Shown here one piece after another: positions 13,079 to 64,000 of a DNA stretch of 64,000 nt (position 1 is its first letter; each line of letters begins with the position of its first letter). A program made the translations under genes and the position numbers. This stretch comes from a virus (taxonomy: Duplodnaviria; Caudoviricetes): the IMG/VR virus record IMGVR_UViG_3300025012_000083, positions 1,763-65,762 of that record, one strand, 5' to 3'. The notes under the pieces were generated by a model. It saw only the letters and a program-made list of their open reading frames with translations. It ran no database searches and was not told the DNA's origin.

Positions 13079-13175
13079 ATTATATCTCCCTTCATATAGA
13101 AATCCCTAATATATTATAAAGTGGCAGGAAGTAGGGAAACTTCTTTTCGATCCGTCGATCTAGCCACAAAATTTT

Positions 13176-14795
13176 CTATCTAATATTACTTTCCTTATCC
13201 TGCCCAATAATCGTTGCGTCTGAAGGCGTAGAAGTCTTTGGTGCTCCTCCGGTATTGTCAGAATTTGTTGCTTGATTCATATTCACAGGAACACGCCAGT
13301 TTCCCTTAGATTTGGTCAGATTTTCATACTGTAATGTTGCATCGTAATCGCAATCTGTATGTCCAACTTTGCTTGACAAGACGCTTAACGAACCTCCGAT
13401 TGAAGTTAGTTTATATTCTTGTTCTATAGCCTCTGTTTGATTATACCAAGTGATTTTCCATATATTCAGTTTAAATGTGTACTTTTTCCTTAAATTTACA
13501 TTGCTTATGCGATAATTAAACCAACTTTGAATTTTATCAAGTATACTAAATACATTTGATTGAATATATACCAAGTTTTGAGTTACACCTACTGATGAAT
13601 TTGTACTAGAACCTCCAAGCAACAAAGGATTAGCTCCAGCTTGCATATATGCCATTGATTTTGCAAATTCAGCTAAACTTTCCTTTTCATTTTGCACACT
13701 TTTAAAAGAAATTTCTTCTAATTTGTAAGGACTACCGACCACGCAAACCGATTCTGGCAAACCTTGACTTACAACATCTACCCAAGAAGAAACGACTTCA
13801 GGTTCTACCAATGGGATGCCAGTTTCTTGGTCAGTCGGGAAATTAATGAAGACCATTTTTAATTTTTGATCCCTAGAACTCTCAATTTCTTCATCAATTA
13901 AATCATTTAACAAAAATAATTCTGTAAACAATTGACTATATAAAGGCAAGAAAAATGTATCATTATCTCCACCTAATTTAATACAACACACTTTTTCATT
14001 TGGCAAAGGTTGCCATTCAGGATATCTTAATTTATCAGGATTTTTTCTATACCTATCATACAAAATTTTAAATTCAGCAGGATATACTCCCCATGCAAAT
14101 TCAGATAATTCATTATCTCTTGATAAATCATCAAAATATTTGAAGTTAAACTCAACCTTATATTGTCCACTTTTTATTGAATATAATCTAATATACTTTA
14201 TTGGCAAATCCCATAGATAAGGAAAATCTCCATCGTTTTTCTCGAATCCACAATATGCACCGTATCTAACTATACTTTCAATAATTCTTCTTCCGGTTTT
14301 CTTTATATCAATATTTTCTATATAATCTCTAACTGTATCAAATTCATTTTCAAAATTGTTTAATATTTTATCAAACGCATCTTGATCTATTGGATTACCT
14401 AATTCATCAAATTTAGTTTTTGCTTTTAACTCTAAATTTAATTTTCTCATTGTTGATTTTGTTGGCTGAAGATAATTATCTAAAGTTGCCATATTTGAGG
14501 TTAGATTAACTAATGTTTTATATATTCCTTCAGGAGCATATAATAAATCAGATAAATCTAGAATTTCTGTTTGATATTTATTTGGATTATGTAACCATAA
14601 TTTTATTTTGTCTATTGTAATGTTTTTGTTGTTTTTTGTTGATTTTTTGTTAGAGAAAAATGAAGCAATACGAGATAATGAGAAGTTTTTTGATTTTGAT
14701 GGTTCCCATGATTCTTTTAATGCGAATAGGTTTGGAGAGAGTGGGGAGGAAGTTGGTGTTTTGTTTTGGTCTGACAAGGATTGACCTCCTTTCAT
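13176..14795 (-). CDS. Portal protein (YonE-like)
   Basis: 539 aa immediately downstream of the terminase large subunit. Confidence 0.75.
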   Translation of the reverse strand: MKGGQSLSDQNKTPTSSPLSPNLFALKESWEPSKSKNFSLSRIASFFSNKKSTKNNKNITIDKIKLWLHNPNKYQTEILDLSDLLYAPEGIYKTLVNLTSNMATLDNYLQPTKSTMRKLNLELKAKTKFDELGNPIDQDAFDKILNNFENEFDTVRDYIENIDIKKTGRRIIESIVRYGAYCGFEKNDGDFPYLWDLPIKYIRLYSIKSGQYKVEFNFKYFDDLSRDNELSEFAWGVYPAEFKILYDRYRKNPDKLRYPEWQPLPNEKVCCIKLGGDNDTFFLPLYSQLFTELFLLNDLIDEEIESSRDQKLKMVFINFPTDQETGIPLVEPEVVSSWVDVVSQGLPESVCVVGSPYKLEEISFKSVQNEKESLAEFAKSMAYMQAGANPLLLGGSSTNSSVGVTQNLVYIQSNVFSILDKIQSWFNYRISNVNLRKKYTFKLNIWKITWYNQTEAIEQEYKLTSIGGSLSVLSSKVGHTDCDYDATLQYENLTKSKGNWRVPVNMNQATNSDNTGGAPKTSTPSDATIIGQDKESNIR

Positions 14796-21271: not shown

Positions 21272-21414
21272 AATTAAATGCCTCCTTTAAATTTAAAATA
21301 TCAAATAAATTAAATAATCAAACCTAAATATTGAGCGTTAGCGAAATATTTAGAAAGAGGAACACGCTTGTTCCGATACACTTGCTCTCGTTGTGTGTTA
21401 TTATTTTTATTAAA

Positions 21415-21555
21415 TTATATCTCCACCCAATGCCCACAATCAGCACACCATAATATTGTCTTACCACAATAAAATTTCATCCAGAACCTATTTTTGAAGC
21501 ATATAGGGCATATTGTATTTTCGTTGATTGAATCATAAATATTAGTTTCTTTCAT
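21415..21555 (-). CDS. 46-aa zinc-ribbon peptide
   Basis: Not in ORF track: MKETNIYDSINENTICPICFKNRFWMKFYCGKTILWCADCGHWVEI, two CxxC pairs, upstream AGGAGG. Confidence 0.5.
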   Translation of the reverse strand: MKETNIYDSINENTICPICFKNRFWMKFYCGKTILWCADCGHWVEI

Positions 21556-21867
21556 TTTGTTTATTGTTTAATCCTCCTTATAGAGAATATACTATAAAAT
21601 ACAGTTTTTCTTGGATTGTTAAGTGATAGTTTTTATCTGGGATATACTATCAAACCCATTTAGTAAGTTATTGGGGAATCAACGGACTCCCCATATTTGA
21701 ATCAGCAATTTAAAATCTTCCCACTCGTGAAAGATATTTTTGTTAATAGAATAGAGAAGGGAGATATGGTAATTATGATAATATTATTTATCTCCCTTGT
21801 GTGACCACATCTAAATTTCTTTAGATGGACAATATAACGTGCCTAAAGCACAAACGACTTTTATATT

Positions 21868-22301
21868 ACTAACCAGAAAAGCAAGCAAAATAAGACTATT
21901 TTTCTTAATTAATTAATTATATTATCCATTTATTTATTAAAATCATCCTCTTGTTTCTAAGATAGTATCTTTTAAAATACTATATTTTTAATATTTGTTC
22001 TTCTAGTTAAGGATTGTTAATCCTAAAATTTATTTATGGCATGATTAGCGAAACGATTGTCGTATTTGCGTAATAATGAGACTAATGTTATATAGAATTT
22101 ACGAATAATGATTTTGTGTTTTGCGAAGCGGATTAGCGATTTTTCTTTTACTGTTAAGTAAAACCTGCTTGTTTATCAGTTTCAAATGTTTGAGAAATAT
22201 GTAAAGTTAAACTTACACAATCTTGCATTATTTGATATGTCTTATCTGTTTATATCACAGATTAGCTTTAAATAGTCTATCTTGCTTTGCTTCTGGCTAG
22301 T
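21868..22301 (-). ncRNA. Candidate ~430-nt structured ncRNA downstream of the 229-aa gene
   Basis: ACUAGCCAGAAGCAAAGCAAGAUAGACUAUU (22301-22271) pairs with AAUAGUCUUAUUUUGCUUGCUUUUCUGGUUAGU (21900-21868) with G-U wobbles on the minus strand; internal hairpins and short repeats; no ORF. Confidence 0.6.
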
Positions 22302-22365
22302 TTTTTAATAAGGGAAGTGTGGTTAGGCAATCCTCTTATTAACTGTCTTGGTTAAGATTCTTAGA

Positions 22366-23055
22366 TTAACTTTCTAAAGATGATAAATATTTCCCTACAA
22401 TATCAGCAGTTGAATCATGAATACTATAAGGAAATTCATACTCAACAATTTCTTCCATCATAGCTTTTTCAATAGAAATACTGAGTTTGTCAGCTTTTGC
22501 TAGTAATGCTTTGTAATTATCACTAACAATATTCCTATCAAAATTAATTGTTTTTGTAACTACTACATCATATCGATATGACGTTTCATTACCTTCTAGA
22601 TTAAATTTGAAGCCATTTTTCTGTGTCTTTTGTTCATCTGTCTTTATATTGATAAGACTATTTAATACATTAGCTAAATTCCTAGATTGTTTTGCATTTG
22701 ATATAGCAGAATCTAAACTAAGATTATTATTATCCTTAGTTTCAATTATTATATCTCTTTTAGCTATTTCTACTGAAATTTCTAATTTTGTCTTTTCTGC
22801 AATTAGATTTTGCACAAGATTAATGATATCAACTGTTGAAGCATCAGGATATTCTCTAATGGTAGTAGTATCTAGTTCCTCATTTTGTGCTTCTGGATTT
22901 GATTTTTCTTTAAAGTGTGATTCAATTACAGAAATAGAATTGTTTTTATTAGAAAGATAAGATGTTAGAGATGAAATAGTTTTATCAATATAAACCAATG
23001 TGCGAAAGGACTCTTTTAGTGAAATTGCGGATTGTGTATTTTGTGAATTAGACAT
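22366..23055 (-). CDS. Conserved helical/coiled-coil protein of unknown function
   Basis: 229 aa; SLKESFR start and GFKFNLEGNETSY...TINFDR motif. Confidence 0.75.
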   Translation of the reverse strand: MSNSQNTQSAISLKESFRTLVYIDKTISSLTSYLSNKNNSISVIESHFKEKSNPEAQNEELDTTTIREYPDASTVDIINLVQNLIAEKTKLEISVEIAKRDIIIETKDNNNLSLDSAISNAKQSRNLANVLNSLINIKTDEQKTQKNGFKFNLEGNETSYRYDVVVTKTINFDRNIVSDNYKALLAKADKLSISIEKAMMEEIVEYEFPYSIHDSTADIVGKYLSSLES

Positions 23056-23119
23056 ATTTGTTATTTCCTTCTTTCAATTGTTAATTTTATTTTTTGTTAG
23101 AGTAATTAACTCAATTATT

Positions 23120-23635
23120 ATTATGAAGGAATTAGTAGCTTGAGCAGATCATATTTTTCAATATAATCTTACATAATTCCTTCACAATACAAGCAAAAAT
23201 GCATCCATAAACCTCATACTCTTTATCAGAGCAATGCCTGTCTTTCAAGGTCTTACTAACTTATGCACATGATTTTAGGGAAGGTTCGCAATTGCACTAG
23301 CGTTGACCTAATTTTATCAAACCCTAAAATAAGTTTTTATTGTTGCTGTTTTGGTTTATGCAATTTCCAAAAATCATCACCACAACAATTTATAGAGGGA
23401 AATAAAAGATTGCTCTCATGAGCATGTAATAGATGATATCAGACCACAATAGTAAGGCGGTGTATCTTACATCTCAGATACTCTTTCGAGTGCGTCAGGA
23501 ACCATTTCTGACCTTATTGTAGTTAATTAAGGTAACTGCCAATGAATCGCCAAACTCACCATATCTGTAAGAGATATTTAATCTCTAGAAATATCCTGCA
23601 ATTAAACCATCACCTATCTGAGTGATATCACTTTT
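23120..23635 (-). ncRNA. Candidate multi-domain structured RNA(s)
   Basis: ORF-free, dense nested stems, ACUC-GAAA-GAGU tetraloop, possible pseudoknot CUCAGAU/AUCUGAG. Confidence 0.45.
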
Positions 23636-23639
23636 TATC

Positions 23640-23825
23640 TTACTCTTCTTCTTCAGTATCCTCAGATTCCCCATCTAAAGACAAATACTGATCACAACCA
23701 TTGATTGTAATATCTAAAATTCCAGCTTGCTTTTTTGTACCTTCTAGTTTATATAGTTTAGTTGACCATTCACATACACTAGCTTTTACACAAGATTCAC
23801 AGAATTGATTATTTAAATTAGCCAT
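23640..23825 (-). CDS. Small Cys-containing acidic protein
   Basis: 61 aa, CESC...C...C, RBS present. Confidence 0.55.
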   Translation of the reverse strand: MANLNNQFCESCVKASVCEWSTKLYKLEGTKKQAGILDITINGCDQYLSLDGESEDTEEEE

Positions 23826-23952
23826 ATATTAATAAATTCCACCCTTTATATTTTTTTATTTATTATTAGTCTTCATCCCGACTTACGTAAATAATTGTAT
23901 TGTGCTACCATGTCTGTTCAGGACTTATATAGTAGCACAAAAATTTATATAT

Positions 23953-24237
23953 TTATTGCTTAACTAAATCTGCAAACTCTTTACCAACCTTAAATCCAAC
24001 CCTAAATGAATCTTCGGAAGTCCAAGTTTCACCTTTACGATCTCCGAATCGAATAATTCCAGTTGTCCCTTTAGTTGGTTTCTTCTCAAAGTTACCAAAA
24101 TTAACGATTTTCACAGGTTCTCCAGTTGCTACAGTTTCTTTAATTACATCCAATACAGCATTAATTGCTTTTTCAGCGTCTTTTTTTGACATTTCACCTT
24201 TTAAACTTACTGCTGTAACCATTTCATTTTTCGTCAT
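23953..24237 (-). CDS. hup: HU-family DNA-binding protein
   Basis: MTKNEMV...SKKDAEKAI...GEPVKIVNFGNF...FKVGKEF. Confidence 0.9.
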   Translation of the reverse strand: MTKNEMVTAVSLKGEMSKKDAEKAINAVLDVIKETVATGEPVKIVNFGNFEKKPTKGTTGIIRFGDRKGETWTSEDSFRVGFKVGKEFADLVKQ

Positions 24238-24342
24238 GTTTTAATATATCCCCTTTTTATTCTTTAATAGTATCTGCGTACTTTTAGTACCAGACCTGTG
24301 TTTTTCAATTTGTTATTGTTATTTATTTTTGTTTTATTTAAT

Positions 24343-25584
24343 CTAAATTTGTTGTGCAATTTCACACATAGGACTTCTATACGTATTCTTTAACTTCACA
24401 CATGAAAAATACTTTGTGTCCTTAAATACTTCTATTGCTCTTTGCATACCATTATCTCTAGGATTTGTACTCTTTAAATCTCTTTGCTCAAACATATCCC
24501 CCTCAATAATAATTTTACATTTAGCACGTTGAATAATTGTTCTCATAGTATAAGCATCAATATTCTGTGCCTCAGTAACAAAAATACAATCCTTCTCAGA
24601 TATCTCAATTCCTCTAATTTCAGAAGTAGGAATCAATAATAATTTACCTTCTTCAATTAAATCTTCTACAGCAGACATAGCACCAAATTTACTTGACAAA
24701 ATGCCACCTAAACTAGATTGAAGTAGTTTATCATCTCTTGAACCAGGATAATATCCTTGCATTTGACTATTCTTTAAAGGAACAGAATTGAATATTATTA
24801 CACACTTATCTATCTCTCCACTGTGAATATTTTGCATTATCCAACTCAAAGATAATAAACTTTTAGCACTTCCTGCTACTCCAAATAATAGTGTAAATAC
24901 TGTACTATCCAATGAGTCCATTGCAATTATCTGATATGGATCTTTTGGTGTAAATTTATCAAGATATATAGAATTTATTGTTTTCTCTTTTAAAGAAATA
25001 AATCCTTTCTCTGTATTCCATCTTTGTTGATCTACAATTATACCACTTTCATCTTCTATTAATAAATATTCATTATTAAGAAGTCCAAAAATATTGATTG
25101 GATTAGATTTATGATTTTTTATTTCTTGTTGAGACATCTTAACTGTCTTATAACCCTTGTAATCAAACTTTTCTTCTTTAAACTCAAACATATCACAAGG
25201 AATTCCAAATGCTTTTGCCTTAATATAAAGATTAAGATCATCAGTCAAGAACAAAAAATCATTATCTTCTTGATATGCTTGGAAGGAGAAGCCTAAGATA
25301 AAGTTATCTGACTTATGTGTAAGAAACTTATTTTCGAATGAAAAATCATAAAATGTTAAAATATCTAAATTAGTTGCATTTTTAATTTTTCTTGTTGCAT
25401 CTCTAGCTTGATATCCAACTTCTGTTGAGCGTTTCAAACCATCAATTTCTTCAATGCAGACTATACAAGTGATTACTTTGTCATAATCTTCAAATCTGAA
25501 TGATGGGTTTAATAAAACGTTTGTATCAACAAATATTCTTCTGTTAGATGCATTTGAATTAATATATGATGGTTTATCGGGCAA
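24343..25584 (-). CDS. phoH: PIN-domain PhoH-family ATPase
   Basis: FVDTNVLL PIN start; GVAGSAKS P-loop, EIRG, EAQN and EGD..Q.D PhoH motifs. Confidence 0.85.
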   Translation of the reverse strand: MPDKPSYINSNASNRRIFVDTNVLLNPSFRFEDYDKVITCIVCIEEIDGLKRSTEVGYQARDATRKIKNATNLDILTFYDFSFENKFLTHKSDNFILGFSFQAYQEDNDFLFLTDDLNLYIKAKAFGIPCDMFEFKEEKFDYKGYKTVKMSQQEIKNHKSNPINIFGLLNNEYLLIEDESGIIVDQQRWNTEKGFISLKEKTINSIYLDKFTPKDPYQIIAMDSLDSTVFTLLFGVAGSAKSLLSLSWIMQNIHSGEIDKCVIIFNSVPLKNSQMQGYYPGSRDDKLLQSSLGGILSSKFGAMSAVEDLIEEGKLLLIPTSEIRGIEISEKDCIFVTEAQNIDAYTMRTIIQRAKCKIIIEGDMFEQRDLKSTNPRDNGMQRAIEVFKDTKYFSCVKLKNTYRSPMCEIAQQI

Positions 25585-30369: not shown

Positions 30370-31200
30370 TTATTTATTAACCAACAAACCTTCCTTATGT
30401 AATCTAACTCTTTCCTGTCCTAACTCAAAATACTTTTCATCATTCTCAAACCCTATGTAATTTCTATTTGTATTTATACATGCTATTGCTGTTGTAAAAG
30501 ATCCCATACAATTATCTAAAATCAATTCACCTTCATTAGAGTATGTTTTTATAAGATATCCTAGTAATTCAACTGGTTTTTGAGCAGGATGAAGTTTATT
30601 TTTAGCATTTACAACCACATTAAATTTTTGCACACTTGTAGGATATCTTAAATCTTCGTAATTTTCTTTTCTTACTCCCGTGATATTATGTAAATCGCTT
30701 TTTACTTCTCCCGTTGTATATTTATAATTATTTCTTTTAGCGGAAGCTTCTGTAACATCCCTTGCTTCTTTTATTGGGTTGTATGTAGGTTTCTTTTTGT
30801 AAAAAACACTTATCGTTTCATGACTTCTCATTGGTTGATTTTTTGCATTCGCAAAACCACTTGGTTTATTTTTATGCCAAATCCAATCATATCTAAATAA
30901 TTTTATATTACTCAATCTTAGATAACTGCTAAAGGGTTCTGCTCCAAATAAAACTATCGCTCCATTTTCTTTTATAATTCTTTCATATTGTAACCACAAC
31001 TTATCTAGAGGGATTACACTGTCCCATTTTGCTTGAGTAGTACCGTAAGGAAGATCACAGAGGATTAAATCTATACTTTTATCTTCTATTATACACATAC
31101 CATTATCACCAATACAATCCTCATTATATACTTTATTCAATTCTAACATTATTATTTCCTTCTTTCTGTTTTTCAAACTATAAAGTCCCTTAAAACTCAC
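30370..31200 (-). CDS. DNA methyltransferase (N6-A/N4-C, beta class)
   Basis: DLILCDLPYG catalytic motif, HPAQKP, LDNCMGSFTT SAM-binding motif; likely start at MLELNK. Confidence 0.9.
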   Translation of the reverse strand: MSFKGLYSLKNRKKEIIMLELNKVYNEDCIGDNGMCIIEDKSIDLILCDLPYGTTQAKWDSVIPLDKLWLQYERIIKENGAIVLFGAEPFSSYLRLSNIKLFRYDWIWHKNKPSGFANAKNQPMRSHETISVFYKKKPTYNPIKEARDVTEASAKRNNYKYTTGEVKSDLHNITGVRKENYEDLRYPTSVQKFNVVVNAKNKLHPAQKPVELLGYLIKTYSNEGELILDNCMGSFTTAIACINTNRNYIGFENDEKYFELGQERVRLHKEGLLVNK

Positions 31201-31223
31201 CTTTTGTTGGATTATATTAATAT

Positions 31224-34200
31224 TTATTTATATTTTATAATGTTTTTATGATATAATTCATCAAAATCTTCATTTGATAACGGACTTGTTTCTTTAAGAT
31301 AATTGTAATGCTCTTCTTCTTTTAAAGTATTAGTCCATTCTCTATTCCAACATTCTTCACAATCAGAATTGTCTTTACATAAAATCATTTCTCCATTAGA
31401 TATCCCATACTCCTGTGGGCAAGATCCTGAAATAATCATATTAGGATTTCTGTTGTTATTTTCTATCTCTAATGCTTTTTCAATAAGTTTAATTTCAAAA
31501 ACCTCCTATTTTTAATAATCCATACAACTAACTACTTCTATATCCATTCTTTCAGCACACTCACCACATATGTATCTATCTTTATCAACACTAACAAATA
31601 TATCTTCTATTTGTAATAATTCCTTAGAACAATAATAACATGATTCAAAAACACTATTGTTGTCAGCTTCACTATTATAAGACAATTGATTTTGCATTTT
31701 CATTTTTCACACGAACCTCCGAAAACACAAAGTCAGTATAATCTTCTAAAAGTATCTCAATTTGATTTCCAACATTCTCAAACAATTTGCTTTCTAACTG
31801 CATACTGCCAACACAATATCCCTCTACTTTTTGCTCATTGCTCCTACACATATGTAAGCAACCCATTCCATTAAATTCAATATTATTAACTCTTCCTAAA
31901 ACTCTTACCAATTTGTTATTAATGTTTTTACCATTGAAAATGTTATCTAGAATATTGGTGAGTGATGTTTGCGAATTATCTGAAGGTGATGTAATTATGT
32001 AATTTATTTTATTATTAATTGAATTTGTGTCAGATATAGATAGTTGACCTTGGAAATGATAAGTTTTCATATTTTTAATTTGCCTTCTTTCTATTATTAA
32101 TTTTATTTTTGTATTTTTATTAAATATCTCGACCTTGAGTAATAGAATTACCATCATTTTCCAACCCTGTAATCAGCCTATAGCTTTATTCTTAAAATGA
32201 CAATTCAATATAAATGGGCTGTATTGATAGCAAAAATCTATCTGCTATAATCTTACATATTGAAGAATTGAACGCCTTATAATGAGTTTTAAATTGATTT
32301 TTATTTATTTGTATTAGATATATTATTTTTATCTTCTTTTAGTTTCGCTTTTAAATTATCTGCTTTAAGTTTTTCCTTGTGAAGTTTCAATTGCTCATTT
32401 TTCCCTTTAATCTGAAAATGTAACACAGAATGAATTTTATCTATATCCTTTTCATCCACAAGATAGACTTTCTCTTCACAATCAATATGTAATGTGTATT
32501 TAATCCCTAATTCATCAAACTGTGGTAAAACTATATTTGTTGTGCTTTTGCCTTTCGGGAAATATATAGCCAATGTTCCTTTATCATCATAGCGATAAGT
32601 TTCTGTTTGTGATTTTCCAAGCAAATAATTATCTGATTCATTTTTAGTTGGTTTATTTGTTTTTAGATCATAAGGCATATGTATTGTGTAGATACCGATG
32701 TAGTCTAAAATTTCTTTTCACCTCCTTTATATAAATATTTATTTTAGTATTTAACAACTTAATATGTATTGTAACTATACATTAACTTCTTATTATCACA
32801 TTCTTTACAAACTAAATGAACCCAATGTTCTGTGTAACTATCGTCATACCACATATTAAATTTTTCAGTATGATTTATTGATGTAGAATTGCTGTGGCAA
32901 ACCTTACATTCAATATGAAAACCTATATTCATTAATATCACCTCCTCTCTACTACTTCATTGTATCATTAATTAAGAAATAATGCAAGTAATATTATTTA
33001 TTGCTTTATATACCTATGTATTCTATTGAATCTTCTTTGTAACACCTCTTTTATCACGATATTTCTTAATTATAAAATCAAGAAACTCTTTCTTCATATT
33101 AAATATTTGCAAACCAAGATCAAATACTTTCTCCCATACTTTTAACATAGCAATTAGTAGTACTCCACTGGTAATAATTAAGGATAGTCCAATAGTTACT
33201 TTGATGAGATTATCTATGATTATGTATTCCATTTATTTTATTCCTTTCTCACATTGTTGAATTATACAAATCTTTCATTTCATCTTTCAAAGATTCATAA
33301 CCATATTTATAATCTAATCTTGGGAATATAGTTACTGAGCGTTTCCATTTCATATGTTCTACGGTTAAGATAATTTCATGTCCTATGCTGTATCCTTCTT
33401 TATCTAATTTATCATATTGACTTACTATGAATTTAGGAGGAGAATCTGTATCGTTACCATATTCTTGTTTACATATTTTATCTACTGCAAATTGGATGGA
33501 ATCAATGATATTTATGTGTTCTAGTTTCATGTTTTATTCTCCTTTTCTATTTTGACAAAACAAATCTCTCAAGCACCAACCACTTAGAAATCCATCAAAG
33601 AAAAAATATTAAAATGATAAGTAACACAGATATTTCTTTACTCATTAATTATCCTCTCTTAAAATCTTTGATAAATCTTTCAATGCTTTTTGTCTCATAA
33701 CCTTTTTATACTCAGTTTGTTTCTGACCGATTATTTCTATATTAGAATTTATTTTTAGTAGTCTTTCTACGATGGATTCATATGGAGCAATTGTCAATCC
33801 TAAAATATTACATCTTTGTTTCATTAATGATAATTCTCCTAAGATGTAATCAATGTCGCTTTTAATTGCTTCAATTTCAAACATTTATTTCCTCCTTATG
33901 TTCGTTAATCCATCCATAATCCAAATTATAATACAATTTAGCAAGGTAACTTGGTAATCTGTATACTAATTTATCCTCAATATCTTTTAATTTGTTTTTA
34001 TATTTATCTCTAAACACAATGTTATTGTCATCTTTCTCATCATATTTAAACATATCTGACCAATCCAATAAAGCCCAGAGTGACTTTGATTCTATGTCAA
34101 CATAACCTTCTTTGATATAAGGATTTATGCGATAAGATAAATCTTTCAGAAATGGAATATTAATTCCTTCTGGTCTTTTTAATAATGCCCATGTTACAAT

Positions 34201-34559
34201 ATTTTCAATGCTTAGTGTATACATTATATTCCTCCAATTTCTCGCTCGACAGATTTGTCGGATGAGGTGTAATCACAATTTTTAAATTCTATTTAGTTTC
34301 TTATGTGACGTAATATATTTACTTAAACCATCAAAAAGAAATTGTCTTTATATCATTCTCCTAAATAATTTAATCTATTTGCTATACAAGTAGGGCATAA
34401 TAATCCTGCTTCTTCATGATGCGTTGGATTAATTAATTCCCATAAGTAATTTGGTATAATTAAGTCTGGAAATTCACCATATTTCATTCTACAATCATAG
34501 CAACATCCTTGTGGTCTTTCATTATCATTGTATTTCCACTTGTATTTATAATTATTCAA
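31224..34559 (-). CDS. Cluster of about ten small hypothetical ORFs, several with CxxC pairs
   Basis: ORFs 31224-31439, 31512-31703, 31675-32157, 32301-32678, 32759-32941, 33023-33232, 33249-33530, 33645-33884, 33877-34224 and 34353-34559, mostly with RBSs. Confidence 0.55.
32960..32988 (-). promoter_or_regulatory. sigmaA-type promoter
   Basis: TTGCAT-N17-TACAAT upstream of the 60-aa ORF. Confidence 0.6.
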
Positions 34560-34568
34560 TTATTTTAT

Positions 34569-35141
34569 TCACCTCTTTAAATCTCTTTCAACAATCTTAA
34601 TAACTTTATAATCAAATATACCCATAATAAACTGTGCAAATATCTGTAATCCAATTAATATATTAATACTTACCTCAAACTTTATTGCTACTATTGCTAA
34701 TGTAGCTCCCATGATCTGTGCTATAGATACTAAATAACTTTCTTGTGTCTGATAATTTGTTAAATCATCTCCTTGCCATATTTTATTTATATTCGATTTA
34801 ATAATACACATCCATATTGCTGAAGATGTTCCATTGAGTATGGAAATACCGAAGAATCTTATGTTTATATTGTGTAATCCATAAATTGACACAAATAAGA
34901 ATCCTAAAACATCTAAAATTACTATTAATAAGAAGAATTTTTGTAATAATTCTCTATTCTTTTGTTTCTTTAATATGTAATTTATAAGAAATATTGTGAT
35001 AATTCCTACCCAGTTTACTATTGAATATATGTATGTGGATACTTTTTGCATGAAATATATGTTTACTGTAGGAGTTGTTAGTGCGAATAGTAGACAATTT
35101 GTGAATATTCCAGTGTATAGGTATAGTTTTATGTTTTTGAT
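34569..35141 (-). CDS. Multi-pass membrane protein (half-MFS-like)
   Basis: About six hydrophobic segments; frame extends ~30 codons upstream of the tracked ATG (IKNIKLYLYTGIFTNCLLFALTTP) to an ATC after GAGGTG. Confidence 0.55.
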   Translation of the reverse strand: MKNIKLYLYTGIFTNCLLFALTTPTVNIYFMQKVSTYIYSIVNWVGIITIFLINYILKKQKNRELLQKFFLLIVILDVLGFLFVSIYGLHNINIRFFGISILNGTSSAIWMCIIKSNINKIWQGDDLTNYQTQESYLVSIAQIMGATLAIVAIKFEVSINILIGLQIFAQFIMGIFDYKVIKIVERDLKR

Positions 35142-35178
35142 TGTGTGATCACCTCATTTGTGTTTATTATATATTAAC

Positions 35179-35613
35179 TTAGTATTTTTTAAAAAACATC
35201 TCAAATGGTTTAAACTTTTTTTGCTGTTTCTTTTCTTCTTCTACCTTTTCAGTATCTTCTAATAGTTTTATTTCCTGTTCTTTTTTATCAACAATTGCTT
35301 CTACTTTCCTTAAATACTTTTCAATGTAATCTATCCATGCTCCCTTGATAAGCCAGTCATAATTAAAAACATTTTCAGGTGTTGTATTTCCGTAAACATG
35401 TAATACAGGAATTCTACAATTAGGAATATACTTATTATTTCGTATTGAATTTAAATCTTCAGTTTGATAAACATAAATGTTAATGCCAAAACATCCATAA
35501 GGATAATCAAACATTATATTTTTATGTTTATAGCAACTACACCCTATATCTACTAAATCAACTTCATCTAATAAATCTAAATCTTTTGCTGTTTTTATAT
35601 ACCATAATTTCAT
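35179..35613 (-). CDS. Hypothetical protein
   Basis: 144-aa ORF with GGAGGTG RBS. Confidence 0.6.
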   Translation of the reverse strand: MKLWYIKTAKDLDLLDEVDLVDIGCSCYKHKNIMFDYPYGCFGINIYVYQTEDLNSIRNNKYIPNCRIPVLHVYGNTTPENVFNYDWLIKGAWIDYIEKYLRKVEAIVDKKEQEIKLLEDTEKVEEEKKQQKKFKPFEMFFKKY

Positions 35614-35797: not shown

Positions 35798-36010
35798 CTA
35801 TCTTTTCTTAATAATCCAACTAATCTTATTCGCCTTCACGCAAGTATGAACATCAAATTTAGTTCTCAATACCTTACCATTAGCCCACCATTCATTCTTT
35901 AACCAATCTAATTGTTTCTGAGTTGCAGGTTCATATTTCCACTTTGCTTTTCTGTCTAGGAATGTACTATATTTTCTAGATGCATATTTCTCTGCTTCTT
36001 CAATAAGATT
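35798..36010 (-). pseudogene. C-terminal remnant of an SF2 helicase-like gene
   Basis: Start-less open frame NLIEEAEKYASRKYSTFLDRKAKWKYEPATQKQLDWL...KKR*. Confidence 0.5.
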
Positions 36011-37580
36011 AAACTTCTTTATTATAATATTTCCAGATCAATTTTTCTCCTGTTTCTAAAGTTCCTGCTGATTTAGCCTTACCTCTACAACATGCGGATA
36101 TTCCAGAAACACTGTTTAAATTATATCTCTTGATTGCATCAGTTATAGAATTAAAAATTTCTCCAGTTGTTACACAAATAACCTCTTTATTATTTGTTGC
36201 TATTGATTTAGTATTATTTATACAATCTTCATGATATTTCCATTCTAAATGAATACCTGTAATTGGACAAATTACATATTGCTTAAACCCTGAACAGCAT
36301 TCTGAAATAAAGTCGGATTTAATTTTATATTTTTTACCTGCTTCAGAAATACTTTTAAAAATTTCTCCGGTAGTAGTGCAAACTATCTTTTTCATGTTAG
36401 AATTATAATTACACCATCCAAGCTTTACTCCTTTATGTAAATAACTTCTTATAGTCGTTGTAGATAATTTATAGATTTCTGCCAATTCTGAAATAGTACG
36501 CTTACCATTGTCCCAAATTATACATATTTCTTTAACTAAATTCTTTAACGCAAACTCTTCACATTTTATCCAATCTACTAGTTCAAGGTCAAATATTGTA
36601 TTTAGTTTAGATTTAATTATATTACTCTTTATGTATTCCAAATCAGAAAAGGCACAATCAATTCTAATCACTTCTATATCATGCTCTTTTGCTATATTGT
36701 CCTTATTTTCATCTATAAGCTTTGATTCTTCCTTGGTTTGTCCAGACATTTTATTATCTACCTTATGCCATCTACCGTCCATTTCAACAGCATATTTATT
36801 ATTATCTAATTCAAAATAGAAGTCGAATCTCATTTCTTTAAAAGTATGTTCTGATTTGAAATCTACATTTAACTGTTCTAATACACTAAATCCTATTTTA
36901 TTAGGATAACTAATTTTATCACCGCATGAACACCCTATGGATTTATTTTTATATATAGAATATATACTTATAGGTTTGTCTTTAATTCTACCGCAATCTG
37001 GACAGATTGGAACGATCTTTTGTTTAGTACCCTTAATATACAATTTTGCTTCATCATAACCTCCTTGAAAATATTTAACCATCCAAGGATCTGTAGTTGT
37101 AATATCATTAATTCCAACAACTAGTTTTAGAGGATTAACACCACATACATTACAACCATTTTTCTCTTTTAAATGATTTTCTGCAATAGAATCTTCATTC
37201 CCACAATTTAAACATAAATAATCATACCCCTTTCTATTATTATTTCCCATTCTTATTTGTTTTATTATTTGTAATTTCCCACTTCTAGTTTCGATGATGT
37301 CGTCTATTTTATATATATGTTCAAAACTATAATTTCCTAAATATAATTCAAATTTGCATTTAGCAAACCAACCGGAATACATATTAAATTCTTTTTATTT
37401 ATCATTACCAATATAAAAATATATTTGCCTATTTTTAAAATCATTGATATGAAATATGTAGTTGTTATTATTGAACTCTATTTGTAAATCCATTCCTATA
37501 ATTTCTTTCCATTTTACTTTTCCTATATTAAAACCACTTGTCCATTTTGGCAATTCTGTAAGTATTTTATTATTATACAT
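36009..37580 (-). pseudogene. Homing endonuclease-like gene (Zn ribbons, Vsr-like nuclease, NUMOD1) split by an in-frame TAA
   Basis: 61-aa and 457-aa ORFs are in the same frame: ...GNDK*KEFNMYSGW...; EMDGRWH and ICVTTGEIFNSI motifs. Confidence 0.65.
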
Positions 37581-58411: not shown

Positions 58412-59646
58412 TTGCAATTCTTAACCCACTACGAACGCTACAACGTGTTAAAATGGGAGCAACGTCAAATCATGCCAAGTTCAAATTTTGTGGCCTTAAA
58501 CAATTCCTTTATGAGCCACAATTCTTCCTTGATAGGTTTCCAGGTTGAACATGAAGACAAACGAGTTCATTATTCAGTTAGTAATATGTTTCTTAACAGG
58601 TTGCAAGCTCAATTTCCTGATAACTGGTTAAAAATTCTTAATGATGGTATGATAGCAGAGTTTAAACAGTGGGAAAGAGGTATATATTCTAACATGTATC
58701 AAGAGGGATTTTTCAGTTAATAAAATCTATTACCCAAATCTTAAAATAAAATTTAGAGAATTAGCCTTAATTCTCTTTTAAGTTCATACAAAATAGGTTA
58801 TAATATTTATAACAAATGTATGAACTTAAAAGGCAATTGTGGAGAATATCTATAACAATTGACCTAGAATACTTGAAGGAGGTTCACAAGTGAAATATTG
58901 TGATTTTTGCAATGAGTCTTTCGACGTTCAATTTGTTACTAAATATGAAACATTGATACACAAAAAGAAAGTATTATATATTTGTGAGTATTGTAATGAT
59001 GAGCATTCAGAATATGACGATGCTGAAGAAATGCAGTCGATTACTTATGGCGATTCGATTTATTACCCTTCACGCTTGCTATAACAAATCAAAGGAGAGT
59101 GATTTTATAATGGAAAAATTAAGTTTTGATATAAACAATGGAAGCACTGTTGAACTAATACAATTTAAACATGATGGAAGTGTATTAATAACAAAGTATG
59201 ACAGCAAAGGCAATCAAGAAACGAATACAGAATCTATTTCTGCAGGTGATTTTATAACAATGCTTAATTGGTATAGGTATGAAAAAGGGAAAGGAAATCA
59301 CAGTTTAAATTTTGACTAACCATTCTTTATCTCGACAGTGGGCAGGTAACATAACAATAACAATGTTATTTGCCTAGTTTCGAAATTAAGAAAGGAAGTG
59401 TATAGAATGAAAGATTTTGTAATTAATAACGTGAATATGATCAAAGAAGATTTTTCGCAAATGATTAACTATGTAGGTCAAAGAGCTATCGCATTAGCCG
59501 AAGTAGAAGAAGGTATTGCAATTAATACTTCTAACCCTTTAAACGAAAAAGATGTTCATAGTAGTATTATATTTTTCTTTGAAAAATGGAATAGGGTTTA
59601 TAAATTAGATTACGGACGAAATGATATTGAAATCGTTTGGAGTTAA
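58412..59646 (+). CDS. Four small ORFs (58412-58720, 58890-59084, ~59109-59319, 59398-59646)
   Basis: RBSs present; the second ORF has two CxxC pairs. Confidence 0.6.
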
Positions 59647-59754
59647 TAACTTTAAATTCTAATTTTGATTGTATGGAAATAGGGCGAAGTGACATAACAA
59701 TAACAGGACTTCGTCTTGATTCGAGACTATCAAAATTTAAGGAGCGTGCATATT

Positions 59755-60012
59755 ATGACAAAGAAAGAAAACTTTAAATTAATTGCGGAGATTGCAAAAA
59801 GAGCAGAAAGTATGAATTTACTCATGTTTGACAGATTTTCTTTAATTATGGATTTAGAATGTGCGAACCGTGAATTCAATTTGAGACTTGAAGAATTTTT
59901 GGATGCAGATAATTTTAATTTTGCTCATGATATTAGCGGTATCCAAAATAATCTAAACAGACAAACGAAGCAATTTGAAAATTGTTTTTTGCCTAGATTT
60001 TCAAGCAAATAG
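59755..60012 (+). CDS. DUF6874-like phage protein
   Basis: MDL...L.LEEFLDADNFNFAHDISGI...CFLPRF; ATG at 59755 after AAGGAG. Confidence 0.6.
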   Translation: MTKKENFKLIAEIAKRAESMNLLMFDRFSLIMDLECANREFNLRLEEFLDADNFNFAHDISGIQNNLNRQTKQFENCFLPRFSSK

Positions 60013-60030
60013 ATTAAAACCAAACTTTTA

Positions 60031-60115
60031 AGGCATTTTGCAGAGTGTAAAGGGTAATATATCTATAACAATTGCCCTTTATTAATGCACTGGCACACGT
60101 TTCAAGTCGTGGCCT
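60031..60115 (+). ncRNA. Twister ribozyme (type P5), possibly degenerate
   Basis: GCA-GAGUG-[P1 hairpin]-UAA-UGC-AC...CAC-GUUUCAAGUC-GUG, closed by AGGC/GCCU; T1 pairing imperfect. Confidence 0.6.
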
Positions 60116-60143
60116 ATGCTAAACTAAGAAAGAGGTTATCAAC

Positions 60144-60482
60144 ATGACTAATGAACTAAAAGAGCGCATTAAAGAAGAAAATAAATATTCCGATTTATTA
60201 AAAAGCAATCCAAAATATATTCTTCAAGGTTGTGACATGAAAACTAAAAAGCGTATCGTTGGAATTATTCGAGGGAACCCAAACGAATATCATGTTACAG
60301 ATTTTCTAGATTACAAATATTTTGATTCTTGGAAAGACGCTTATATGCAATTAGAATTAAATAAAGTGTACTGCTCAAACTGTGGAAAATCTATAACACC
60401 AGAAGTCACAGAATACGAGGAAGGACTAGAAAATTTTGAAAGTGAAAAGATATGTCCTATATGCGAAGAATATATTAATTAA
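60144..60482 (+). CDS. Zn-ribbon protein flanked by two twisters
   Basis: 112 aa, CSNC...CPIC. Confidence 0.65.
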   Translation: MTNELKERIKEENKYSDLLKSNPKYILQGCDMKTKKRIVGIIRGNPNEYHVTDFLDYKYFDSWKDAYMQLELNKVYCSNCGKSITPEVTEYEEGLENFESEKICPICEEYIN

Positions 60483-60555
60483 TCTTGCAGAGTGGTAGAG
60501 CGTATAACAAAACGCTCTATTAATGCACAAGACAGGTCACAAGTCCTGTTAAGAT
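60482..60555 (+). ncRNA. Twister ribozyme (type P5)
   Basis: GCA-GAGUG-GUAGAGCGU/ACGCUCUAU-U^AA-UGC-AC-AA-GACAG-GUCACAAGUC-CUGUU; GUG/CAC and AC/GU pseudoknot pairs; AUCU/AGAU closing stem. Confidence 0.8.
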
Positions 60556-60580
60556 GCTAAATTATTAGGAGGAATATATA

Positions 60581-63037
60581 ATGTCCAAATCTCTTCAAAC
60601 TTTAAAAACCAACATTACTAAAGGCTCACAAAGACTTTCCAAAACTACTATTAAAAACATCGTAAATGCCGGAGAATTTGATAAAATTGAACTTGCCTAT
60701 TCTTACGATGGCAGAGAAGTCCACAAAGGGACTTTGATCGAAAATCCTGTTGAATGGTTCAATAAAGAGTATGAATTATTGGACGTTCGGCTCTACAAGG
60801 TAGAAAAAGGTTTAGTTTTAATTCATTTGCAATTCCATTCTAACCTATGGTATGCTCTACATATTGACTTAAATAAAAACTATGAAACAACCAACGCACC
60901 AGGAGTTAAAGCAGAAAATAAAGTTCAAGATGTTCAAGTAACGGAAACAAAAACCTATCTTGACACAATGCAAAGCAAATTCAAAACAGGAGAAGGAACA
61001 GCAGAGGAACTAAGATCCTATTATACTTATTTAATTGAAAATGTTGATTCTGTAAAAGTTGTAATTCTTGACATGCTGAACAATTCAGAACAACACAAAC
61101 GGAAACGTGCAAATACTAAAGCGGAATTGACTGAGGATTGCTATAACAACATGGTAGAGGCTCTTGTATATCATGTTAAAGACACTTTATCTTACCAGAT
61201 GGATTTTACTGATATCAAAGGAGCAAGACAAAGAGCTATCAAGACAATTCTTGATTCTGCTACTGACGAAATGATACAAACCCAATATACCAAAAACAAA
61301 GCAGAGAAAGAAGAAAGAACAGTACAAAGAAAGGAATTAATTGAAGGGATTACAAATCCCCAAACCCTAGAGGATTTCCATAATGTCAAATATTATCGCA
61401 ATGACAAAAACTTGACCATTGAAGAACAACAGCGTTTTGATCATATTTATTCAATCTCTCAGAAAGTAAAGAGAGAAAAAGAACAGCAGGAGCGAAAAGA
61501 AAAAGCACTTGCAACAGTTGTCGGATCAAATGACATGTACGCTATAACAGCAGACGTTGACACACGCGACAATTCTCCTCTATGGGTTGTAAAACTCATA
61601 AATACTCTTAGTAAAGATGAATGGAGAATTCATGATTCACAAATGAAATTAATTAGCGGTTATTATTCAAGATTCAAAAAAGGCCACATTTTCAAGTATG
61701 ACCCAACATCTAAATTATTAGGAGAACAGTCTGAAGAAAACCAAGTAGAACAGTTGGAAGAAATCCAAGCATCTAGCAATAACAGCGACAAACTACGCAA
61801 GGTAGCAGACAACATGCAAAACACAATTGACAACAAAAGAGCAAACATACTGACAAATACTGCAAGAAGAGCAAGAATGGCAATAGGTCAAGAAGAGCAA
61901 GCAGACACATTAGAACAAATGCAGGGAGTTTTGCGAAATATTGCAAATGCTATTGAATATGGTGAATTAACATTTATTAATCTTATTGATTCTAGGACAC
62001 AAGTTGACACACTAGAAAGCATTCTTAATCGTGCAAACTGGAAATATAAATCAGTTGAAAATATTGATTATAATGTATGGCATAATTCTCCAATAACAAC
62101 AGACATTATTAGGTTCGCAGAAATTCCCTCAAGTACAATTTATCTTCGTCAATTACAGTCTATTATTAATGATATTCGCAATACTGACGGTTTTAAACTC
62201 ATTGCAAACCGATTGCAAAAACTAATTGACAATGCAAAATTAAAGCAAAAAGATCCTCACCATGACCCACTAATTGATATTTCAGATTATGATGCTGAAC
62301 TTGATAAGATTTACAAAAATACTGATGTTTTGTACAATCAATATTTTGAAACCGCAATCGAAGAACGCAGGAGATTATCAAGAATGGGCATAGAATCAGT
62401 TGAAGAATTAAGGGAATATCTAAGGGAATACTTCAATTATCGAACCGTTAAAAGCTCAATTGACCCAACTCAACAAAAAATTAAAGAGTTGGAAAGAAAA
62501 TTCAAGTTCGATCAAAAAGGAGATACTTTCTTTACTCCTTCAGACATTGCCCTTCAAATGATTGAATTGGCCGACATATCTAATAACAGCAGAGTTCTTG
62601 AACCTTCAGCCGGAATTGGAAATATTGCAGACCAAATTCAAAAGTTTGTTGACAATGTTGATGTTTGTGAACAGATGTATTCATACCAAGAACTGTTAAC
62701 TCTCAAAGGTTTTAATGTTGTAGGAAGTGACTTCCTGAAGTATGAAAATAACAATTATTACGACTGTGTGATAATGAATCCCCCATTTTCAGCAGAACAG
62801 GATCACATTAAACATGCTTATGATCTTCTTAAGGTTGGTGGAAAACTCATTGCAATTACTTCGCCGCATTGGACTTTTGCCAATGACAAATCATCAAAAG
62901 AATTCCGTCAATGGTTCGAGAATTTGAATGGTGAAATTGTAGAAGAATTAGAGTCAGGAACTTTTGAGATGACACAAGTTAGATCAAATATAATTGTCAT
63001 TAATAAAGACACTGAGACCATGCAAAAGGCTGTATAA
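60581..63037 (+). CDS. Large protein with C-terminal N6-adenine methyltransferase domain
   Basis: FFTP, VLEPSAGIGNI and IMNPPF motifs in the last ~190 aa; long helical N-terminal region. Confidence 0.8.
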   Translation: MSKSLQTLKTNITKGSQRLSKTTIKNIVNAGEFDKIELAYSYDGREVHKGTLIENPVEWFNKEYELLDVRLYKVEKGLVLIHLQFHSNLWYALHIDLNKNYETTNAPGVKAENKVQDVQVTETKTYLDTMQSKFKTGEGTAEELRSYYTYLIENVDSVKVVILDMLNNSEQHKRKRANTKAELTEDCYNNMVEALVYHVKDTLSYQMDFTDIKGARQRAIKTILDSATDEMIQTQYTKNKAEKEERTVQRKELIEGITNPQTLEDFHNVKYYRNDKNLTIEEQQRFDHIYSISQKVKREKEQQERKEKALATVVGSNDMYAITADVDTRDNSPLWVVKLINTLSKDEWRIHDSQMKLISGYYSRFKKGHIFKYDPTSKLLGEQSEENQVEQLEEIQASSNNSDKLRKVADNMQNTIDNKRANILTNTARRARMAIGQEEQADTLEQMQGVLRNIANAIEYGELTFINLIDSRTQVDTLESILNRANWKYKSVENIDYNVWHNSPITTDIIRFAEIPSSTIYLRQLQSIINDIRNTDGFKLIANRLQKLIDNAKLKQKDPHHDPLIDISDYDAELDKIYKNTDVLYNQYFETAIEERRRLSRMGIESVEELREYLREYFNYRTVKSSIDPTQQKIKELERKFKFDQKGDTFFTPSDIALQMIELADISNNSRVLEPSAGIGNIADQIQKFVDNVDVCEQMYSYQELLTLKGFNVVGSDFLKYENNNYYDCVIMNPPFSAEQDHIKHAYDLLKVGGKLIAITSPHWTFANDKSSKEFRQWFENLNGEIVEELESGTFEMTQVRSNIIVINKDTETMQKAV

Positions 63038-63112
63038 GTTATAACAACCATACTACAAGGGTTCGAGGGTATCCCTAAAAAATACCCTTACTATTTTAAA
63101 AGGTGGTTTATT

Positions 63113-63304
63113 ATGACTTATAAATATGTTATCAATTCCACTGGTGGAAGTTCTACTAAATATGGCAATTGTGAAGTTTGCGGAAAACATGCAAGCGAAG
63201 TTTTTTTACAAATTGAAGAAAGAAAATATAGTGAAGGTTATACACATTTTAAATGTAATTCATATTTTGGTCATAGGGAATGTTTGGAGAGTAAAAGAAG
63301 ATAA
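63113..63304 (+). CDS. Small Cys/His-rich protein
   Basis: YGNCEVCGKH...FGHRECL; AAGGTGG RBS. Confidence 0.6.
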   Translation: MTYKYVINSTGGSSTKYGNCEVCGKHASEVFLQIEERKYSEGYTHFKCNSYFGHRECLESKRR

Positions 63305-63325
63305 ATAATTTATTTTGATAATGCC

Positions 63326-63379
63326 CAAATGCTTTACACTAATATAAAAATAATATATAATATTAGTGTAAAGCATTTG
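63326..63379. repeat. Perfect 20-bp inverted repeat
   Basis: CAAATGCTTTACACTAATAT / ATATTAGTGTAAAGCATTTG. Confidence 0.8.
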
Positions 63380-63490
63380 CAATCAATTAAACCTTACATT
63401 TCCAATACCAAAATGGTATAATCTGTATAACACAACTCAAAATTTCAAGCAGGGAATTTCAAAATTCATTAAGAAAGGAAGGTTAAAACA

Positions 63491-63766
63491 ATGAACAATT
63501 ACATTACAAGCAAAGTAAAATTCGAGGAAATTGATTCTAATACATTCAGAATTAATAACACAATCTACACTGTAAATCACGACAAAGACCCTGAATATAT
63601 CGATGATGGAGTATTAAATCTTAGTTATTATCATCTAGAAAAAGATGGAGAACAATCTCAATATATTCTAGCATTTAACAAAATTGAAGGTATTGATCCA
63701 GAAGATGTTAGCGAATGGTCAGACGAATATGACTCTAATAACCCATATATTTTAGAGTTTAATTAA
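63491..63766 (+). CDS. Small acidic protein
   Basis: 91 aa, RBS, TGGTATAAT promoter at ~63414. Confidence 0.6.
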   Translation: MNNYITSKVKFEEIDSNTFRINNTIYTVNHDKDPEYIDDGVLNLSYYHLEKDGEQSQYILAFNKIEGIDPEDVSEWSDEYDSNNPYILEFN

Positions 63767-63839
63767 GTTAACAGAGGACTTGCAACCTTTTGAGATTGCA
63801 AGTAATGTGCAAAGGCATATTCCAAGTTATGCCTAACTT
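63765..63839 (+). ncRNA. Twister ribozyme (type P5)
   Basis: AAGUUA/UAACUU closing stem; ACA-GAGGA-CUUGCAA/UUGCAAG-U^AA-UGU-GC; AGGCAUA-UUCCAAGU-UAUGCCU with GGA/UCC pseudoknot. Confidence 0.75.
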
Positions 63840-63877
63840 GTTAGCTCAAAAAGGAGCAGGGTAAAGGAGTTTTAAAA

Positions 63878-64000
63878 ATGAACATTGAATTAATGATCGA
63901 AAATCTAAATGTAACCGAGGAAGATGAAAACTATATCAGAGAATCATTAGTAGAAATTCAAATCCATCCTGAAGAGATTTTAGAAGTTAAGGAATCAGGT
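63878..64000 (+). CDS. Start of an acidic ORF, truncated by the window edge
   Basis: ATG after AAAGGAG; MNIELMIENLNVTEEDEN... Confidence 0.55.
   Translation, partial: MNIELMIENLNVTEEDENYIRESLVEIQIHPEEILEVKESG

Follow-up and report, generated by a model that had tools for sequence, protein, structure and literature searches.

The reason why self-cleaving ribozymes form clusters in phages and prophages is the question on which the locus described here bears (PMC10085705). Passages in two papers describe an enrichment of such ribozymes in the vicinity of phage genes and of further ribozymes, and credit Roth 2014 and Weinberg 2015 with reports of clusters (PMC4604425, PMC10085705); the strongest associations are given there as those with Mu-like phage genes, for a reason that in 2023 was "still unknown" (PMC10085705), and a further source describes ribozymes of prokaryotes as frequent neighbours of small, non-conserved open reading frames (PMC6155905). 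The locus lies in the window analysed in this work, a 64,000-nucleotide stretch that comprises bases 1763-65762 of the 65,762-base IMG/VR virus record IMGVR_UViG_3300025012_000083 and whose end coincides with the end of the contig. Between positions 60032 and 63839 of the window the presence of three type-P5 twister ribozyme motifs was confirmed. The arrangement is already known from phages, and the locus is a further well-formed example of modest novelty; what it contributes is a clean case in which one ribozyme class occurs in three copies on one strand, each copy in an intergenic spacer.

Three type-P5 twister motifs in the window

All three copies lie on the + strand and present their elements in the same order: the 5' strand of P5, the 5' strand of P2, GAG and two further bases, the P1 hairpin and U^AA, followed by the 3' strand of P2, two T2 bases, a short linker, P4 with the loop U-NNN-AAG-U, and the 3' strand of P5. 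This is the order of elements in the type-P5 twister family of Rfam (RF02684, clan CL00120), P2-GAG-NN-P1-U^AA-P2-T2-P4 with a CAAG loop and both pseudoknots, T1 and T2. P1 is closed by a loop, the P3 stem is absent and the chain ends emerge at P5, as is characteristic of the type-P5 permutation. The nesting of P2, P1 and P4 around U^AA, together with GAG and the CAAG loop, was recovered for each copy from the bases, the model alignments and the folds, and the T2 pseudoknot, formed by the two bases after P2 with the GU that ends the CAAGU loop, pairs in all three. The P1 hairpins of copies 1, 2 and 3 measure 11, 8 and 7 bp and their flanking P5 pairings 5, 5 and 6 bp, and the nested helices appear in the minimum-energy folds (z -3.96, -4.23 and -2.98, respectively), that of copy 1 containing P5, P2, P1 and P4.

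Copy 1 occupies 60032..60120, with a predicted cut at U60083^A60084. Its P5 is formed by GGCAU (60032-36) and AUGCU (60116-20), its P2 by GCA (60040-42) and UGC (60086-88), its 11-bp P1 by 60048-58 and 60071-81, its T2 by AC (60089-90) and GU (60106-07) and its P4 by 60092-99 and 60108-14, the loop reading UUUCAAGU. Copy 2 is canonical and spans 60482..60555 (predicted cut U60521^A60522), with AUCUU (60482-86) and AAGAU (60551-55) as P5, GCA/UGC as P2 and the loop UCACAAGU; its T1 pseudoknot is paired at all three positions (GUG 60492-94 with CAC 60538-40) and its T2, AC/GU, is likewise fully paired. Copy 3 is divergent and covers 63765..63839 (predicted cut U63803^A63804), with a 6-bp P5 (AAGUUA 63765-70 and UAACUU 63834-39), a P2 consisting of A-U, C-G and A-U pairs (ACA 63771-73 and UGU 63806-08), a T1 paired at all three positions (GGA 63776-78 with UCC 63821-23), GC/GU as T2 and the loop UUCCAAGU.

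An initial annotation of this DNA had described three type-P5 twisters at 60031-60115, 60482-60555 and 63765-63839, with cuts at 60083/84, 60521/22 and 63803/04 and compensatory changes between copies 2 and 3 in both P2 (GCA/UGC versus ACA/UGU) and T1 (GUG/CAC versus GGA/UCC). Reading base by base bears out the motifs, all of them on the coding strand, the cuts fall as predicted at the U^A sites, and the compensatory changes are exact. Unlike in RF02684, the base after CAAG is U rather than C in all three copies, compensated by A or G in T2; further departures from the family are the A-U pair in P2 and the GGA/UCC form of T1 in copy 3, which the filtered family model overlooks, and a T1 mismatch in copy 1.

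A default Rfam scan of the window gave three matches, among them Twister-P5 at 60486-60548, which is copy 2 (58.6 bits, E 1.3e-9, model positions 1-58 of 58, gathering score 37.6). More permissive Rfam scans, of 59000-64000 at E<=10 and of the window at E<=5, returned beyond copy 2 no twister and no other ribozyme class, hammerhead, pistol, hatchet, twister-sister and HDV-like ribozymes all being absent from the 11 matches of the whole-window scan. A strict descriptor composed after the copies had been seen, consisting of P2, P1, UAA, P4 and both pseudoknots, matched copies 2 and 3 alone on both strands and no site in 100 dinucleotide shuffles of the window. With one T1 mismatch permitted copy 1 joined them (1 site in 100 shuffles), and with the pseudoknots left out the same three sites only were found (4 sites in 100 shuffles).

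As the descriptor had been composed with the copies in view, covariance models were built too. Model R1 comprises copy 2 and four twisters from other viral contigs, and model R2 comprises 38 twisters of other contigs and excludes both the window sequence and the two closest homologues of copy 2. With filters off on both strands of the window, R1 scored copy 2 at 78.9 bits (E 3.7e-19), copy 1 at 34.9 bits (1.6e-7) and copy 3 at 25.8 bits (3.9e-5), and R2, also filter-free, scored them at 69.9 bits (E 6e-15), 38.0 bits (2.3e-7) and 24.3 bits (4e-4), these E-values being rough because the calibration of both models was short. The next-best sites reached 10.7 bits with R1 and 10.1 bits with R2, and neither filter-free search gave a fourth site above 11 bits in 64 kb. 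The hand-written descriptor was rejected as a general detector for being too strict, since it flags 10 of 121 loci, as against R1 twisters at 40 of 119.

These 119 loci came from a pattern scan of IMG/VR, the 40 being those with an R1 twister at E<1e-3. We compared the copies with a set of 57 distinct phage twisters, which is pattern-biased and holds several copies per locus. In this set 96.5% of T1 cells are paired and each of the three T1 pairs covaries; as covariance models leave the pseudoknots T1 and T2 unscored, such pairing counts are independent of model fit. The T1 types found in the set are GUG/CAC, GGG/CCC, GAG/CUC, GGC/GCC, UGG/CCA and AGG/CCU, and the GGA/UCC of copy 3 fits the covariation rule that they follow. 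T1 usually differs between neighbouring copies, as at locus L053 (GAG/CUC, GUG/CAC and GGG/CCC), a divergence that could prevent mispairing of adjacent ribozymes. P5 pairing was no stronger over 28 phage twisters than in controls (mean energy of own P5 pairings -1.64 kcal/mol, p 0.68 versus unrelated pairings), and P5 is therefore optional and no general feature.

Placement between genes and a probable cutting of messenger RNA

The stop codons 5' of copies 1, 2 and 3 end at 60012, 60482 and 63766, and the twister cores begin 27, 4 and 4 nucleotides (nt) past them. On the 3' side the ribosome-binding sites and start codons of the next genes lie at 60132-35/60144, 60567-72/60581 and 63863-69/63878, respectively, with 12-24 nt between the 3' strand of P5 and the ribosome-binding site. 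The placement of all three copies agrees with the initial annotation, which had put each between a stop codon and the next ribosome-binding site. The same placement recurs in other phages. Two of the 57 distinct twisters stand at the edge of their locus, leaving 55 assessable for upstream frames. Of these, 49 follow a frame of 50 codons or more whose stop falls between -9 and +27 nt relative to the first P2 base, compared to 18 in the antisense control. The upstream stop ends within the narrower interval of -3 to +6 nt at 36 of the 55, versus 4 of 55 in the antisense control. Any explanation must meet two regularities, namely that the twister usually starts near the upstream stop and that T1 usually differs between neighbours.

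Arrays recur as well. At least two twisters were found by R1 at 8 of the 40 twister-bearing loci, and arrays of 2 to 5 twisters, all on a single strand, are present in further viral contigs. G004, a 57.6-kb contig with terminal repeats, has four Rfam twisters above cut-off and one below it on one strand within 3.2 kb (L011, corresponding to G004 21358-24545), and G005, of 49.6 kb and also with terminal repeats, has three above the Rfam cut-off and one below it within 4.5 kb (L053, corresponding to G005 31132-35603). On whole records, two Rfam twisters were found in G002, a relative of this phage, and one in G001, a 178-kb relative rated complete, and the Rfam twister model found no match in the whole record of G003. 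The ten multi-copy arrays listed have their ribozymes on the coding strand, in the gaps that separate open reading frames, and in 7 of the ten two twisters enclose a single gene. The genes enclosed in other arrays are unrelated and mostly of unassigned function, one being RadC-like. Our locus resembles reported bacterial ribozyme clusters in that several ribozymes occur within a few kb beside small phage genes of unknown function, and differs from them in comprising one class and one permutation on a free phage contig rather than in a bacterial genome.

What is observed are the motifs, with their significance and placement, and the fact that they recur in other phages; from these we infer cleavage in vivo and an effect on expression, with intergenic cutting of mRNA as the likeliest function. 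We consider it probable that three cis-acting type-P5 twisters, situated in the intergenic spacers of a same-strand cluster of small accessory genes in an uncultured phage, cut the messenger between genes. Self-cleavage chemistry and cut position follow from membership of the twister family. Upon transcription of the cluster each ribozyme would fold into P2, P1 and P4 and the pseudoknots T1 and T2, and the backbone would cut itself between the U and the A of the UAA bulge. A few bases past its stop codon, the upstream messenger would then end in the stable P1 hairpin, carrying a 2',3'-cyclic phosphate, whereas the downstream messenger would start with a 5'-hydroxyl followed by the P4 hairpin, approximately 25-45 nt before the ribosome-binding site. 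Neighbouring cistrons would in this way become separate RNAs whose stability and translation are uncoupled. Comparable systems are the glmS ribozyme and synthetic ribozyme insulators such as RiboJ, in which self-cleavage in an untranslated region alters mRNA fate via a 5'-hydroxyl end and the removal of upstream context. In contrast to these, the phage elements have no evident ligand control, and they belong to the 3' border of the preceding gene as much as to the 5' leader of the following one. For bacterial twisters and hammerheads, a passage of PMC6765202 puts forward, as a proposal and unproven, a role in processing polycistronic transcripts.

A number of observations weigh against this reading. 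The direction in which the stability of either product would change depends on host RNases. Copy 1, 27 nt past its stop codon, is the farthest of the 49 twisters of the set with an upstream gene, and its T1 (GUG versus UUC) has one G-C pair, a U-U mismatch in the middle and a terminal G-U pair, leaving two of three positions paired. In Rfam it scores 35.1 bits with Twister-P5 at 60039-60111, below the gathering score of 37.6, and surfaced only when a 126-nt stretch was searched. Copy 3 gave no Twister-P5 match at E<=10 in 59000-64000 or in a 121-nt search. Its first P2 pair is A-U, whereas G-C stands there in 55 of 56 distinct aligned twisters, many of which were chosen by a pattern that fixes this pair as G-C; second copies at the same loci, which were not selected by the pattern, likewise have G-C. 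No relatives of copy 3 were recovered either, as none of 19 IMG/VR loci obtained with a pattern from its P2/T2 region holds a twister (R1, filters off, E<=0.1). Ribozymes have been gained, lost and moved among the relatives of this phage, which counts against a function tied to particular genes, since such a function would not predict it. Finally, promoter-like sites between copies 2 and 3 mean that the three copies need not share one transcript.

The search with the Rfam Twister-P5 model that the initial annotation had put forward as a check thus succeeds for copy 2, falls narrowly under the cut-off for copy 1 and leaves copy 3 unmatched. Copy 3 also vanishes from the R1 search once default filters are on, indicating that the Rfam miss is at least partly a filter effect. 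With a divergent copy overlooked by the standard Rfam search in this manner, routine annotation under-counts such arrays.

The promoter-like sites lie just ahead of a 91-residue gene that precedes copy 3. On the + strand, a perfect palindrome of 20 bp (63326-45 and 63360-79; fold z -7.92) encloses a near-consensus TTTACA-17-TATAAT (63333-61), a second site with a TG-extended -10 follows at 63393-63422, and 63381-63482 is conserved in G001 and G002. These sites make possible a separate transcription start for the gene preceding copy 3, and copy 3 may belong to its own transcription unit. The single polycistron described in the initial annotation is doubtful for copy 3 in view of these sites. 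As a candidate terminator, the hairpin at 63065-63089, 3' of the methyltransferase gene that follows copy 2, was unconvincing (fold z -0.82). A looser 31-nt inverted repeat at 58760-58847 also encloses a TATAAT-like stretch; palindrome and inverted repeat could both be operator/promoter cassettes at gene-cassette boundaries.

Mobility, decay and circularisation as alternatives

An alternative to mRNA cutting as the purpose of the ribozymes is that the spacers serve mainly as mobile or recombinogenic junctions within the accessory region and persist because they travel with cassettes or seed their exchange, with little adaptive effect of cleavage; we regard this as unlikely. In its favour, the spacer of copy 2 (~95 nt) has 88.7% identity to a spacer of G002 and 90.7% to one of G001, and yet at 89-91% identity it stands between different genes in all three phages, the genes on both of its sides having changed. 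In G002 the site before the homologous methyltransferase gene holds a different twister, and the copy-2-like one lies on the downstream side of the gene, at a distance of ~950 nt. For the 112-residue gene between copies 1 and 2, G003 has a homologue covering the N-terminal 71 residues, with no twister in the surrounding 10 kb. That the enclosed genes are small, unrelated and mostly without known function also suits exchange of cassettes, as does an apparent decayed twister at 58822-58891. The latter can be aligned locally with copy 1 over the 5' flank, 16 nt of the P1 loop and a stretch resembling the P4 loop, with a score of 45 against a null mean of 22.6 (standard deviation 4.4, maximum 41, 1953 windows); its GCAGAG core is missing, R1 and R2 give it no score, and the stretch resembling the P4 loop today coincides in part with a ribosome-binding site and a GTG start codon. 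The region has 83% identity to G001, in which a weak second twister candidate (L140 12973-13027, 14.3 bits, E 0.032) was discounted for the misfit of its T1 and loop.

Two features argue that these spacers are more than junctions. Compensatory change has preserved the helices and both pseudoknots, and the fold, and presumably cleavage, are therefore under selection. The tight placement at stop codons (36/55 versus 4/55) suggests a role in the messenger rather than a mere junction module. Junction modules are, moreover, compatible with the cutting of mRNA by the twisters that they carry, and not opposed to it.

Even less likely, in our judgement, is that copy 2 is the sole active ribozyme and that copies 1 and 3 are decaying paralogues without a useful rate of cleavage. 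Activity is almost certainly to be expected of copy 2, judging from its sequence. The doubts concern copy 1, with its central T1 mismatch and its score under the Rfam cut-off, and copy 3, which besides being without an Rfam match or relatives has a weak 3-bp P2 with two A-U pairs; the fully decayed copy nearby demonstrates that decay does occur at this locus. In pairwise mutagenesis of the rice twister, as described in part of PMC9901934, T1 was highly sensitive to single mismatches and was rescued by compensatory changes, a behaviour that favours copy 3 and disfavours full activity of copy 1. Copy 3 retains every helix and both pseudoknots by paired changes, which is not expected of random decay, and GAG, UAA and CAAG are retained in copies 1 and 3. 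A mismatch in the middle of T1 also occurs in a few high-scoring natural twisters, for example L044:199-252 (51.6 bits). Copy 3 is thus probably active, and copy 1 may, owing to the mismatch in its T1, cleave slowly or not at all.

The initial annotation had further noted that copies 1 and 2 flank the 112-residue gene and would release it on a 438-nt RNA (60084-60521), which holds on the predicted cuts, and had raised a natural circular mRNA; that a host RtcB-type ligase joins the ends of this RNA, with its ribosome-binding site and gene, into such a circle is unsupported and highly improbable, as the ends are not cross-compatible and RtcB was not found in the four phage contigs searched. The layout itself invites the idea, since two twisters on the same strand enclose one complete gene together with its ribosome-binding site, as in 7 of the 10 arrays listed. 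The excised RNA also brings positions 40-50 and 400-410 together in its minimum-energy fold, short end-to-end distances being usual for RNAs. The ribozyme permutations of the engineered Tornado system leave short complementary ends as a designed ligation stem. In that system, as described in part of PMC12628768, a coding RNA is flanked by two ribozymes leaving 5'-hydroxyl and 2',3'-cyclic-phosphate ends, and native RtcB of E. coli circularises such ribozyme-flanked coding RNAs; circularisation is therefore chemically reasonable. Unlike in Tornado, both ribozymes here are of type P5, the product retains large halves that are not complementary, and the search of the phage contigs gave no ligase gene. 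On the 438-nt RNA these halves rebuild neither a twister nor a ligation stem, only the 3-bp P2 being common to both; across copies 1 and 2 the P5 duplex amounts to +1.1 kcal/mol and T1 is paired at two of three positions, and for the segment from copy 2 to copy 3 both P2 and T1 are incompatible.

Cross-P5 energies of 18 adjacent pairs average -1.94 kcal/mol, versus -1.77 kcal/mol in 696 unrelated pairings (p 0.51), and P5 cross-pairing was rejected as support for circularisation, the duplex energies of own, cross and control flanks being indistinguishable. Of the 18 adjacent pairs, 5 show a fully paired cross T1, compared to 23 of 28 for the ribozymes' own T1, with the T1 loop parsed by a simple rule that misread at least one row (the first copy at L067, where a P3 insert is present). 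RtcB (PF01139) was not found in G000-G003, which include a relative rated 100% complete, the contig of this phage being rated 42% complete, and the homologue of the 112-residue gene is kept in G003 without a twister nearby. Literature searches on phage twister arrays found neither twister-flanked single-gene units nor natural phage circular mRNAs. Were circularisation true, the mRNA would resist exonucleases and would parallel in nature what Tornado achieves by design, and other twister-flanked single genes would behave alike.

Gene surroundings and other elements of the phage

By its PHROGs matches the virus is a tailed phage, with a portal, a large terminase, a PhoH-like protein, a helicase and homing endonucleases, and its contig is given a completeness of 42% by CheckV. 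Four entries are listed for this DNA, none of them RNA and all from groundwater metagenome runs of one study, which may be the source sample. Among deposited phages the only DNA relative found is Bacillus phage 2S-4, which matches the DUF6874 gene before copy 1 over 251 nt and in which no twister was found in the 12-kb stretch around the match. The spacer of copy 2 has merely a 21-nt chance match there, and no culturable phage with this array was found among the deposited phages compared by DNA.

From ~57 kb to the end of the window the + strand carries every sizeable open reading frame, including all those that follow. Upstream of copy 1 lies the 98-residue DUF6874 gene (59716..60012; Pfam PF21779, E 2.1e-28; phrog_12453). 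The 112-residue gene between copies 1 and 2 (60144..60482) has a zinc-ribbon-like CxxC-X19-CxxC and reaches 19.6 bits with Pfam Zn_ribbon_3, under the cut-off of 27. The 818-residue gene 3' of copy 2 (60581..63037) has a C-terminal DNA methyltransferase domain (Pfam MTS, N6_Mtase), and its product matches phrog_15406 (E 1.6e-114) at profile positions 698-1421 of 2789 only; it looks like a free-standing fragment of a giant multidomain phage methyltransferase. A 63-residue open reading frame (63113..63304) and the 91-residue gene upstream of copy 3 (63491..63766) have no family match, and relatives of the latter were not found among the viral contigs searched. Downstream of copy 3 only the 5' part of a gene is present (63878..64000), cut by the end of the contig.

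A motif UAUAAC(A/G) occurs in the P1 loops of both copy 1 and copy 2 (60059-60070 and 60503-60512) and of both G002 twisters (L141 4634-4695 and 8130-8194). P1 loops otherwise vary freely, and the common motif could reflect shared descent or a bound factor.

Two further structured RNAs were found on the - strand: a skipping-rope RNA (RF02924) at 23444-23522, at 68.1 bits versus a cut-off of 36.7, and an int-alpA RNA (RF02996) at 13104-13170, at 46.8 bits. The int-alpA RNA has an HNH homing-endonuclease gene (11756-13078) on one side and the portal gene (13176-14795) on the other. The endonuclease gene is one of two homing-endonuclease-like genes, the second being at 36009-37382 on the - strand; between them the two match phrog_559, phrog_4538 and phrog_9084.

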